A DNA stretch of 64,000 bases, taken from sequence record MW748999.1. One strand, given 5' to 3'. The notes below the pieces were generated by a model. It was not told the origin of the DNA, made no database searches, and saw only the letters and a list, made by a program, of their open reading frames with translations. The position numbers were made by a program, and so were the translations under genes. This stretch comes from Escherichia phage vB_EcoM_Skers. Of this stretch, positions 50,470 to 51,081 are shown piece by piece. Positions within the stretch are counted from its first letter, which is position 1. Every line of letters begins with the position of its first letter.

Positions 50470-50672
50470 TTACATTTAGGGCAATGCGGTTCTTTAATAT
50501 AATACCCGTCTGTCTTTGGAACACTAACAGGAGCGGTTTTTATATTGTATTCAGTGAAACAACGAAAACAAGTTACGTTTTCTACAGACTGACGTTTCAC
50601 CCAATCACCTGAATATAGATCATTTTTATTTGTCATATTCCACCACCACAATGTTAATGTCTGGAGTAGCAA
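50442..50672 (-). CDS. hypothetical zinc-ribbon small protein (start likely MTNKND)
   Basis: CFRCF...CPKCKC pairs. Confidence 0.35.
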   Translation of the reverse strand: MLLQTLTLWWWNMTNKNDLYSGDWVKRQSVENVTCFRCFTEYNIKTAPVSVPKTDGYYIKEPHCPKCKCRLYWSHL

Positions 50673-51081
50673 TATTAATGATCTCTTCTACACATTCCCA
50701 CTCAAGGCCACCGATACCGCAACCGATTTTAGGAATATAGAAAGGCTGTATAGCACCTTCAAAAACATCATTGAGAGTCTCAAATCCTTTCAGGATAGCA
50801 CCATATTCAGCATTTGGACCCGGTCGGAATTGGGTATAGAGATTCACCCCGCACCAGTTATAACCATTAACTTGATGCGTCCAGACACTAAACCCACCCA
50901 GCTTTTCTACCTTACCGCGAGAAGTTTGCTTGTCAATCTCTAACGCTTGCGGGAACTCTTTCGCGATCTTTGCAGCAATACCAGCACCCATAGTATGAAA
51001 ACAATTACAACCATGAATTAAATGACCGTTTCCTTGTTTAAACAGGGCGATGAGATCGCCCTTTACAGTATCAATAATCAT
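50626..51081 (-). CDS. macrodomain protein, TARG1/DarG-like (putative ADP-ribosyl hydrolase)
   Basis: GDLIALFKQGNGHLIHGCNCFHTMGAGIA and IPKIGCGIGGLEWECVEEI follow the TARG1/OARD1-type macrodomain motifs. Confidence 0.6.
   Translation of the reverse strand: MIIDTVKGDLIALFKQGNGHLIHGCNCFHTMGAGIAAKIAKEFPQALEIDKQTSRGKVEKLGGFSVWTHQVNGYNWCGVNLYTQFRPGPNAEYGAILKGFETLNDVFEGAIQPFYIPKIGCGIGGLEWECVEEIINIATPDINIVVVEYDK

Follow-up and report, generated by a model that had tools for sequence, protein, structure and literature searches.

The Krischvirus orthologue of T4 tk.4 (adfM) encodes a stand-alone, Gln-type TARG1/SCO6735-like macrodomain protein, a predicted ADP-ribosyl hydrolase

The stretch of DNA analysed here (64,000 nucleotides of Escherichia phage vB_EcoM_Skers, record MW748999.1, hereafter the window) is of Krischvirus identity (RB49/JSE/Phi1-like; DNA about 97% identical), and its gene at 50626..51081, present in single copy, is the positional orthologue of T4 tk.4, which has been renamed adfM. 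T4 Tk.4 is 44% identical to the 151-aa protein of the window (E 4e-45); it matched a single place in the window, as it did in the 154 kb of the near-identical phage W115 that were searched, and the match is reciprocal and single-copy. Meanwhile, the T4 and window genes have the slot between vs and tk in common, and the two proteins form a clade with 94% bootstrap. Deletion of tk.4 was reported to sensitise T4 to DarTG2 in a preprint based on genetics only, in which the gene was renamed AdfM, for anti-DarT factor macrodomain (bioRxiv 10.1101/2025.11.20.689424). The original prediction of a counter-defence against ADP-ribosylating immunity is thus borne out genetically for the T4 orthologue, as Δtk.4 is sensitive to DarTG2. 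So the idea is correct but not new, and both the gene and its family have already been catalogued. We consider it reasonably probable that the Krischvirus protein, as the tk.4/adfM orthologue, erases ADP-ribose from DarT2-modified phage DNA by an SCO6735-type mechanism; for this particular protein we infer both the action on DarT2-modified DNA and the mechanism.

The open reading frame is real, with an ATG start on the minus strand and exactly the 151-aa translation noted earlier, and a 100% identical protein has been deposited from W115 as 'macro domain protein'. As listed in Table 1, the gene order around it is vs.1 - vs - tk.4 - Zn1 - Zn2 - tk, all on the minus strand, where Zn1 and Zn2 denote two ORFs for zinc-binding proteins. 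The vs gene lies directly upstream of the macrodomain gene and marks the T4-syntenic slot, and tk forms the end of the block; PF26829 was matched by the vs-equivalent gene of a related contig. The stop codon TAA of vs (51097-51099) is directly followed by the Shine-Dalgarno sequence of the macrodomain gene. The gene is probably expressed early and shares a transcription unit with vs.1, vs and tk, and the candidate promoter upstream of vs.1 could drive vs.1-vs-tk.4-Zn1-Zn2-tk as a single unit. A promoter and terminator scan of the region gave 28 promoter-like sites versus 21.3 +/- 4.3 in shuffled sequence, which is not above expectation, and hence the timing of expression stays a matter of prediction.

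Table 1. Features of the vs-tk region of the window (minus strand throughout)
Feature	Positions	Strand	Basis
tk (thymidine kinase)	49345..49941	-	Pfam TK, E 1.1e-51; 53% identity to T4 tk
Zn2, 72-aa phage zinc-binding protein (PF23895)	50227..50445	-	Pfam, 114.4 bits
Zn1, 64-aa phage zinc-binding protein (PF23903)	50442..50636	-	Pfam, 82.6 bits; start as in W115
tk.4/adfM-like stand-alone macrodomain protein, 151 aa (Gln-type, TARG1/SCO6735-like ADP-ribosyl hydrolase, predicted)	50626..51081 (stop included)	-	ORF, Pfam, PHROG, AF2
P117-K-I-G-C-G-I-G-G-L126 codons, diphosphate/distal-ribose-binding glycine loop	50704..50733	-	Alignment to TARG1 MPRIGCGLDRLQW
Thr83-Gln84 codons	50830..50835	-	Alignments; Gln in 67/68 family members
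HGCN motif codons (His23-Gly24-Cys25-Asn26)	51004..51015	-	Alignments, family conservation
Shine-Dalgarno GAGAGG, 8 nt upstream of the ATG at 51081	51090..51095	-	Read off the sequence
vs (valyl-tRNA synthetase modifier)	51097..51456	-	PHROG 1256, E 2.9e-33
Candidate sigma-70-type promoter TTGACT-17-TATTAT, upstream of vs.1	52089..52117	-	Consensus scan

Among 50,697 phage records, 2,736 carried a homologue of the 151-aa protein, and these cover many host genera. The dN/dS of the gene was 0.2-0.35 relative to the copies of T4 and S16. In comparison with the Vequintavirus copy 69% of the residues are kept and the synonymous sites are saturated, and purifying selection can therefore be claimed only qualitatively there.

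The original prediction had assigned the protein to the TARG1/DarG (ALC1-like) class of macrodomains, and both of the searches proposed for checking it gave the expected result. The Pfam macro-domain profile PF01661 was matched over its positions 1-118 of 118 with 28.9 bits (E 1.2e-6; gathering threshold 22), and the AlphaFold2 model has a macrodomain fold (pLDDT 97.0, pTM 0.91). The best 50 of the 207 solved-structure matches (Foldseek, E <= 0.001) were macrodomains or designs on a macrodomain scaffold, with TARG1 as the top match (E 9e-11, TM 0.77-0.84) and DarG and SCO6735 matched as well. In a profile-to-PDB search BT1257, TARG1, SCO6735 and DarG were matched at E 1e-13 to 4e-16. The only sequence or profile matches were BT1257, TARG1, SCO6735, DarG and Poa1p, and the same proteins occupied the top ranks in Foldseek. 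DarG macrodomain HMMs also matched the protein (PADLOC, E 1e-14; NCBIfam, E 2e-13). The protein thus belongs to the ALC1/TARG1-like class, and its closest relatives are not of the MacroD, PARG or macroH2A types.

Two signature blocks had been described for the protein. The C-terminal one, IPKIGCGIGGLEW, is present as described, and the N-terminal pattern matches only in part. The N-terminal block reads KGD...IHGCNCFHTMGAGIA and has GD, the His and MGAGIA in common with TARG1 (HCISEDCRMGAGIA); in place of the I-S of TARG1 it carries C-N, and the Cys of 'C.MGAGIA' is absent. Both ADP-ribose-binding glycine loops of macrodomains, MGAGIA and IGCGIGG, are kept across the family.

Active-site equivalences were derived from HMMER and MAFFT alignments together with a published structure-based alignment of SCO6735, BT1257, TARG1 and DarG. 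The catalytic Lys position of TARG1 (K84), DarG (K80) and PhiKZ AdfM (K78) is taken by Gln84, which corresponds to SCO6735 Gln85, and Gly124 stands at the site of the catalytic Asp125 of TARG1, so the Lys84-Asp125 dyad of TARG1 proper is replaced at both positions. Asn26 aligns with DarG Asn22 and SCO6735 Asn27, and Gly24 with SCO6735 Val25, whose backbone places the catalytic water. As a set, His23, Asn26, Gln84 and a conserved Gly align with H24, N27, Q85 and a conserved Gly of SCO6735, and the motifs IHGCN, NLYTQ and KIGCGIGG correspond to AHVCN, NMIGQ and RIGCGLAGG. Among 68 family members Asn26 was found in all and His23 in 67; altogether, there is little or no variation at His23, Asn26, Gln84, Gly120 and Gly122, and P117, I119, G120 and G122 are invariant in the family.

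SCO6735 cleaves thymidine-linked ADP-ribose without any Lys, by an active-site set of Gln, Asn, His and Gly, and it rescues DarT toxicity; mutagenesis of SCO6735 N27 and DarG N22 has been reported, and on thymidine-linked ADP-ribose DNA the SCO6735 variants N27S and Q85A were nearly or fully inactive, Q85A being inactive (PMC9411070). The residue check proposed with the original prediction came out divided: the TARG1 and DarG residues are formally absent, and this does not refute activity, because Gln84, Asn26, His23 and Gly make up the active site of SCO6735. Since some macrodomains only bind ADP-ribose, a role as a non-catalytic ADP-ribose binder or sponge was considered as well. However, Asn26, Gln84 and the glycine loops, which are essential for SCO6735/DarG catalysis, are invariant or nearly so, and such a role is highly improbable.

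The reaction that we favour would proceed as follows. The toxin DarT2 of the host DarTG2 system would use NAD+ to put ADP-ribose on the N3 of thymidine in single-stranded phage DNA, and this mark would block replication. The phage protein would then take the ADP-ribose moiety into its glycine-loop cleft and hydrolyse the C1''-N glycosidic bond, by which free ADP-ribose would be released, the base restored and infection allowed to proceed. Catalysis would not be of the TARG1/DarG lysine type; rather, Gln84, fixed by Asn26, would position the distal ribose for attack by a water held by the backbone around Gly24, as proposed for SCO6735. The TARG1-like macrodomains are, as a class, able to remove ADP-ribose from thymine and uracil bases (PMC13036486), and PhiKZ gp104, a different phage macrodomain of the Lys type, removes DarT2 marks from DNA (PMC13309987). 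On the other side, the 151-aa protein lacks the catalytic Lys that is found in DarG, TARG1 and PhiKZ AdfM, and its identity to T4 Tk.4 is only modestly above the up to 40% reached with some homologues encoded in NARP1 operons, which rebuild NAD+; both points count against an anti-DarT2 role. The acidic pI of 5.3, not obviously fit for DNA binding, counts against an eraser acting on DNA.

DarG itself was rejected as the identity of the protein. The DarG equivalog (NCBIfam NF048014) gave 50.4 bits against a cut-off of 250, covering only positions 2-141 of 338 of the model and lacking Lys80, and the C-terminal DarT-binding domain of DarG is absent from the 151-aa protein; the low score and the absent domain are further points against an anti-DarT2 role. 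Of the DarG active-site residues Lys80 and Asn22 named in PMC13309987, Asn22 is kept as Asn26 and Lys80 is replaced by Gln84. No darT lies beside the macrodomain gene, whose neighbours are vs, the two zinc-binding ORFs and tk. The DarG models scored 52.8 (PADLOC) and 50 bits (NCBIfam) for the 151-aa protein versus 132.9 and 138 for PhiKZ gp104.

T4 Tk.4 has long been annotated as 'A1pp phosphatase', and the 151-aa protein matches PHROG 335 ('phosphatase', E 9.5e-63). The annotation of T4 Tk.4 speaks for another main role, namely that of an ADP-ribose-1''-phosphate phosphatase of the Adpp/Poa1p kind, acting on a small molecule instead of DNA, for example one produced by RES-domain NADases (aRES defence) or by side reactions of RNA repair. 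Such a role would also agree with the 30-40% identical homologues inside NARP1 operons (Adps/Prs-like plus Namat/NAMPT-like) of Vibrio, Acinetobacter and Pseudomonas phages. A protein of this kind from Vibrio phage Gary turns ADPR-1''P into ADPR and overcomes aRES (bioRxiv 10.64898/2026.01.28.702374). The motifs HxCN, [T/G]Q and IGxG are common to the NARP1-linked proteins and the window protein. In addition, the N-terminal IHGCNC..T.G.GIA resembles yeast Poa1p, which is among the best fold matches; the H23/S30 numbering of Poa1p follows the names of the PDB mutant entries H23A and S30A.

However, searches for homologues of Adps, Namat or NAMPT found none in either the window or W115 (1-154 kb; tblastn with the Prs-like and NAMPT-like proteins of Athena/D22, E <= 0.01). 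The gene thus lies neither within nor beside an Adps and Namat operon, and the phage would have no means of turning the resulting ADP-ribose back into NAD+. A homologue of the T4 NADAR protein 61.2/AdfN was likewise not found in the window or in W115. Moreover, the window gene groups with T4 Tk.4, at the bootstrap given above, and not with the NARP1-linked copies, in which the loop after the TQ motif is longer by 5-8 residues, and the sole phenotype known for the orthologue is anti-DarTG2 (bioRxiv 10.1101/2025.11.20.689424). We regard the phosphatase as an unlikely main role. It should be pointed out that Adpp (about 34% identity for the Athena copy) has the same motifs and is a proven phosphatase, and sequence alone cannot fix the substrate.

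That one family holds both a DNA-related phenotype and phosphatase activity might also indicate a broad 'ADP-ribose-1''-X' eraser, whose relevant targets would be other nucleic acids or proteins that host defences have ADP-ribosylated, e.g. RNA, with DarT2 lesions as just one of the substrates. TARG1, DarG and SCO6735 are multi-substrate enzymes acting on thymine-ADPr, uracil-ADPr and, in the case of some of them, Glu/Asp-ADPr (PMC9411070, PMC13036486), and the extremely wide spread of the gene, over the phage records and host genera given above, would suit such an eraser. As the T4 transposon screen reported tk.4 as a match with DarTG2 only, among the conditions described (bioRxiv 10.1101/2025.11.20.689424), we hold broad targeting to be rather unlikely.

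The original prediction had also offered an eraser paired with the ADP-ribosyltransferases of the phage itself, for which positive support was not obtained. By this explanation the protein would be a regulatory eraser reversing the marks of Alt/ModB-type enzymes. Indeed, the window contains a ModB-like transferase at 11168-11671 (33% identity to T4 ModB, E 4e-8), and W115 has two further annotated ADP-ribosyltransferases. These genes are, however, about 39 kb or more from the macrodomain gene and show no linkage with it, and T4 Δtk.4 has a phenotype on host defence, with none reported without it. T4 Alt, ModA and ModB are arginine-specific, and macrodomains of the TARG1/DarG class are not known to act on arginine-ADP-ribose. 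A role of this kind is therefore improbable.

The two Cys-rich ORFs beside the gene, which had been proposed as possible partners, are real and belong to zinc-binding Pfam families. They had been said to flank the macrodomain gene, which is wrong, as both lie downstream of it. Longer TTG/ATG ORFs had been listed for them, but the likely starts, which agree with the annotation of W115, are ATGs at 50636 and 50445. The start of Zn1 overlaps the macrodomain stop by 11 nt. Homologues of Zn1 occur near a macrodomain gene in Vequintavirus and, in jumbo phages, between an Acb1-like 2H enzyme and SIR2; the jumbo-phage neighbour was considered as a macrodomain and rejected, being the Acb1-like 2H protein. 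In unrelated phages Zn1 is thus again found next to enzymes of ADP-ribose or cyclic nucleotides, and it is a possible candidate for an accessory to the macrodomain protein. A large-database search with Zn1 gave one match; as it came from a further Krischvirus-like contig whose gene order is identical, it does not count as independent evidence.

Homologues of Zn2 were found in 782 phage records, and the gene follows Tk.4 in S16, T4_ev240 and Klebsiella phi1_146054. Zn2 sits in the tk.4-tk interval in many T4-like phages as a syntenic resident and is probably no dedicated partner. Positions 56-64 kb of T4, which include the tk region, gave no match to Zn2. An assignment of the zinc ORFs to T4 tk.3/tk.2 was rejected for want of similarity by BLASTP and tblastn. 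As the examined tk region of T4 has no homologue of Zn1 or Zn2, T4 Tk.4 presumably does not need them.

A wider proposal, for which we see a modest chance, is that Tk.4-type Gln macrodomains are generalist ADP-ribose-1''-X hydrolases, acting on both DarT2 thymidine lesions and ADPR-1''P, with Zn1 as a general anti-defence accessory. The accessory part was suggested because PF23903 is also found between the Acb1-like 2H enzyme and SIR2 in jumbo phages. If this were true, one enzyme of 150 residues would blunt two unrelated defences (DarT2 and RES-type NADases), and the PF23903 protein would be an accessory of ADP-ribose/cyclic-nucleotide anti-defence enzymes in general. Under the anti-DarT2 reading that we prefer, RB49-type coliphages would carry the anti-DarTG2 eraser of T4, which would help to predict the therapeutic or model phages that escape DarTG2. 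Phage macrodomains against ADP-ribosylating immunity are an already established concept, and the basic picture is unchanged. The T4-type and PhiKZ 'AdfM' go under one name with different active sites (Gln-type versus Lys-type), and the Gln-type family also includes a proven small-molecule phosphatase, Adpp. Hence, transfer of annotations such as 'phosphatase', 'DarG-like' or 'AdfM' needs biochemical checking.

Compared with known systems, the window protein is like T4 Tk.4 in length class and in the motifs HGCNCFHTMG.G.A and NLYTQF.PGPN, but the identity is only 44%, and tk.3/tk.2 downstream in T4 are unrelated to the two zinc-binding ORFs. The DarG macrodomain (T. aquaticus / M. tuberculosis; PDB 5M3E, 5M3I) and PhiKZ gp104 'AdfM' (PMC13309987) have the same fold and class, their Asn22/Asn23 is conserved as Asn26, and the presumed substrate, DarT2-modified thymidine, is the same, with the common logic of an orphan antitoxin-like eraser. 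They differ in the catalytic Lys80/Lys78 versus Gln84; gp104 is only 20% identical to the window protein, and the two 'AdfM' proteins are from different subclades. Adpp of Vibrio phage Gary (bioRxiv 10.64898/2026.01.28.702374) and yeast Poa1p (PDB 6LFQ) are of the same PHROG 335 family. The copy in the related Vibrio phage Athena, which has the same Adps-macro-Namat arrangement as Gary's Adpp, is about 34% identical to the window protein and shares the HxCNC, Q and glycine-loop motifs; in contrast to Adpp/Poa1p, the window protein is found outside a NARP1 operon, with a shorter post-Gln loop and in a separate clade.

Human TARG1/OARD1 (PDB 4J5R/4J5S) is the best structural match (TM 0.77-0.84) with 28-29% identity and has the KGD, His, MGAGIA and P[KR]IGCG...W blocks in common with the window protein, but it carries the Lys84/Asp125 dyad instead of Gln84 and Gly124, and Ser at the position of Asn26. 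SCO6735 (Streptomyces coelicolor, PDB 5E3B) and BT1257 (Bacteroides, 2FG1) are Gln-type ALC1/TARG1-like macrodomains at about 23-25% identity, and have the same active-site solution of H-x-C-N, Gln for the catalytic Lys and the IGCG..GG.W loop. Unlike the window gene, SCO6735 is of cellular and not of phage origin and is driven by a DNA-damage-type (RecA-NDp) promoter. Its loop after the Gln is longer, and its Lys89/Lys93 'mobile loop', implicated in DNA binding, has no counterpart in the window protein.

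The macrodomain gene was recovered as described in the original prediction, whose main interpretation is also supported, although the T4 orthologue has already been characterised. Translation of the ORF gave the expected 151-aa product (the window protein), which scored 28.9 bits against the Pfam Macro HMM (gathering threshold 22, E 1.2e-6, whole model covered) and matched PHROG 335 ('phosphatase') with E 9.5e-63. Homologues were detected by tblastn in 2,736 of 50,697 phage records. Compared with the Vequintavirus copy, 69% of residues are kept and synonymous sites are saturated; comparison with the copies of T4 and S16 gave a dN/dS of 0.2-0.35. 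This is a genuine gene, subject to purifying selection.

Features of the macrodomain locus and of compared loci
Feature	Record	Coordinates	Strand	Remark
Macrodomain gene	window	50626-51081	-	T4 tk.4 orthologue (adfM)
Shine-Dalgarno GAGAGG	window	8 nt upstream of macrodomain-gene ATG	-	directly after TAA stop of preceding gene
Zn1	window	50442-50636	-	PF23903, 64 aa; overlaps macrodomain stop codon by 11 nt
Zn2	window	50227-50445	-	PF23895
vs	window	51097-51456	-	'valyl-tRNA synthetase modifier'
vs.1	window	51464-52054	-	SLT lytic-transglycosylase-like
Candidate promoter	window	51419-51447	-	TTGACA-17-TATGAT, extended TG, 11/12
ModB-like gene	window	11168-11671	-	
Region around primase gene 61	window	12274-14879		
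ADP-ribosyltransferases	W115	112368-113192; 113271-115322		annotated; outside window
Macrodomain-Zn1 segment	window	50442-51081		
Same segment, Vequintavirus	L003	4001-4907		Zn1 homologue at 4713-4907
Felixounavirus homologue	L006	3995-4780		261 aa
Mydovirus homologue	L008	3980-4591		203 aa
Zn1, jumbo phages	L013; L021	3980-4195; 4929-5171		

The AlphaFold2 model, built on 68 homologues, reached pLDDT 97.0 and pTM 0.91. TARG1 was its best PDB match by Foldseek (E 9e-11, TM 0.77-0.84), followed by Poa1p, DarG (T. aquaticus, M. tuberculosis), BT1257 and SCO6735, and the matches among viral structures were Tk.4-like phage macrodomains. Similarly, the family profile matched PDB sequences of BT1257 (4e-16), TARG1 (1.6e-14), SCO6735 (1.9e-14), DarG (3.8e-13) and Poa1p (1.8e-12). 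These matches place the window protein in the ALC1/TARG1-like class, as its assignment to a TARG1/DarG-type macrodomain had anticipated. The Felixounavirus and Mydovirus homologues carry the macrodomain fused to a C-terminal extension.

The surrounding 3.4 kb shares 97-98% identity with the Krischvirus phages E26, JSE, Phi1, RB49 and W115, and the W115 macrodomain protein is 100% identical to the window protein. The genes regB, vs.1 (SLT-like) and vs precede the macrodomain gene, and a pair of small zinc-binding ORFs, a gene for a membrane protein of 97 aa and tk come after it, an order that corresponds to T4 regB-vs.1-vs-tk.4-tk.3-tk.2-tk.1-tk. T4 Tk.4 (44% identity, E 4e-45) matched one place only in the window, and likewise one in 154 kb of W115. 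A small neighbour-joining tree linked the window protein to a Vequintavirus copy (100% bootstrap) and then to T4 Tk.4 (94%); PhiKZ gp104 clustered there with M. tuberculosis DarG. Deposited genomes name the gene tk.4, 'phosphatase' or 'macro domain protein'. It is a catalogued, already known orthologue of an anti-defence gene of T4 whose characterisation is recent. The macrodomain-Zn1 segment is far closer to the Vequintavirus (rV5-like) genes (69% amino-acid identity for the macrodomain protein, 78% for Zn1) than to the T4 orthologue (44%), which suggests lateral exchange between Krischvirus and Vequintavirus; no Zn1 homologue was found in the T4 stretches examined.

The N-termini of vs (MKKLTIVAMIAMMFSAGALA...) and vs.1 (MLKVLKAIVLSLSLAVGATHA...) are hydrophobic and signal-peptide-like, which is odd in vs for a supposed cytoplasmic synthetase modifier. 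The best sigma-70-like match of the region falls within the initial codons of vs, a position from which it could drive independent expression of tk.4 and the genes after it.

The experimental evidence on the function of T4 tk.4 concerns DarTG2, a host defence whose toxin DarT2 puts ADP-ribose on thymidine of phage DNA. Transposon sequencing of T4 on a DarTG2-expressing host gave tk.4 as the single significant hit, a clean knockout rendered T4 DarTG2-sensitive, the gene was renamed adfM, and its product was proposed to strip ADP-ribose enzymatically from DNA (bioRxiv 10.1101/2025.11.20.689424). Orthology and synteny point to the same role for the window protein, in line with the predicted counter-defence function.

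Of the two signature blocks originally read in the protein, the C-terminal one is an exact match, whereas the N-terminal one resembles TARG1 only in part (IHGCNCFHTMGAGIA versus AHCISEDCRMGAGIA in TARG1). When active-site positions were equated by HMMER and MAFFT alignments, DarG Asn22 corresponded to window Asn26, the lysines of DarG (Lys80), TARG1 (Lys84) and PhiKZ gp104 (Lys78) to Gln84, and TARG1 Asp125 to Gly124. Asn26 is present in all 68 family members, and His23 and Gln84 in 67 each. With the Lys and Asp125 replaced, the lysine-based chemistry of TARG1 and DarG is unavailable to the window protein. SCO6735 is a precedent: it has Gln85 at the Lys position and neither TARG1 residue, yet on DNA it efficiently hydrolyses ADP-ribose linked to thymidine, and it relieves the toxicity of DarT. 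Activity is abolished in its Q85A mutant and almost abolished in N27S, and the mechanism proposed is mediated by water with assistance from the backbone (PMC9411070). Its motifs AHVCN, NMIGQHG and RIGCGLAGGTW compare with IHGCN, NLYTQFR and KIGCGIGGLEW in the window protein, and BT1257 has the same Gln. TARG1, DarG and SCO6735 act on ADP-ribosylated uracil of RNA as well, reversing the modification (PMC13036486). Against DarG family models the window protein scored 50-53 bits, with the macrodomain half of the model alone covered, and PhiKZ gp104 scored 133-138. As the NCBIfam DarG equivalog cut-off is 250 bits, identification of the window protein as DarG was rejected; it is a Gln-type relative.

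We consider it rather probable that the window protein is an anti-DarTG2 thymidine-ADP-ribose glycohydrolase acting by an SCO6735-type mechanism. The phage also has ADP-ribosyltransferases of its own, for which the macrodomain could serve as eraser: a ModB-like gene in the window (33% identity to T4 ModB over 113 aa, E 4e-8, no Pfam match) and two more in W115. None of these genes is linked to tk.4. Transferases of the T4 type act on arginine, and the TARG1-like macrodomain class is not known to remove that mark. A homologue of T4 gp61.2 (the anti-DarTG1 NADAR factor AdfN/AdfA) was found neither near primase gene 61, nor in the window, nor in W115 1-154 kb, so this phage type may have an answer to DarTG2 and none to DarTG1.

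In the phages Acinetobacter D22, Vibrio Athena and Pseudomonas Moonstruck, homologues with 30-40% identity are embedded in operons of Prs-like and NAMPT-like genes, which are the NARP1 NAD+-reconstitution pathway; RNA ligase genes adjoin the macrodomain genes there. In the Vibrio phage Gary operon, the macrodomain protein Adpp is an ADP-ribose-1''-phosphate phosphatase that enables NARP1 to overcome the RES-type defence aRES (bioRxiv 10.64898/2026.01.28.702374). The window protein has its HxCN, Q and glycine-loop motifs in common with the NARP1-linked copies, which would favour an Adpp-like role, but the genomic context of that role is missing: Adps, Namat and NAMPT homologues were not found by annotation or tblastn in the window or W115 1-154 kb. 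Moreover, the loop after the TQ/GQ motif is 5-8 residues longer in the NARP1-linked copies than in the T4/Krischvirus type, and this loop may determine substrate preference. Beside the preferred glycohydrolase activity, an additional one on ADP-ribose-1''-phosphate or other 1''-linked substrates is possible.

The two zinc-ribbon ORFs proposed as flanking partners are genuine Pfam families, but the macrodomain gene has both of them on its downstream side. No homology to T4 tk.3 or tk.2 was found for either ORF. Zn2 is much commoner (782 phage records) than Zn1 (195). It occurs in the variable tk.4-tk interval of S16, T4_ev240 and Klebsiella phi1_146054, and gave no match in the T4 56-64 kb stretch holding the tk region, where Tk.4 nevertheless works. 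Its position near tk.4 is synteny and does not amount to evidence for a partnership. Zn1 occurs in Krischvirus, Vequintavirus and GAP32-like jumbo phages. In Vequintavirus a single small ORF separates it from the 69%-identical macrodomain gene. In the jumbo phages Serratia BF and Pectobacterium CBB its neighbours on the two sides are an Acb1-like 2H phosphodiesterase (PF23474, 56-58 bits) and SIR2, with Nudix-cREC following and NAMPT and NMNAT-like genes close by. This pattern among unrelated phages, drawn from only two independent contexts, hints at a connection of Zn1 with counter-defence enzymes of ADP-ribose or cyclic nucleotides, and Zn1 may be an anti-defence accessory.

Beyond the known orthology, this analysis adds the Gln-type, SCO6735-like active site, the recognition of Adpp as a member of the same family, the association of Zn1 with ADP-ribose or cyclic-nucleotide enzymes, and the separation of T4-type AdfM from the DarG-like, Lys-type 'AdfM' of PhiKZ. 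PhiKZ gp104, independently given that name, clears DNA of DarT2 marks in vitro, protects PhiKZ, and keeps Asn23 and Lys78 (PMC13309987); with the window protein it shares just 20% identity. AdfM is two proteins of different subclades with about 17-20% identity, Gln-type T4 Tk.4, known by genetics only, and DarG-like, Lys-type gp104 with biochemistry shown, and the common name invites mistaken transfer of annotations between them.
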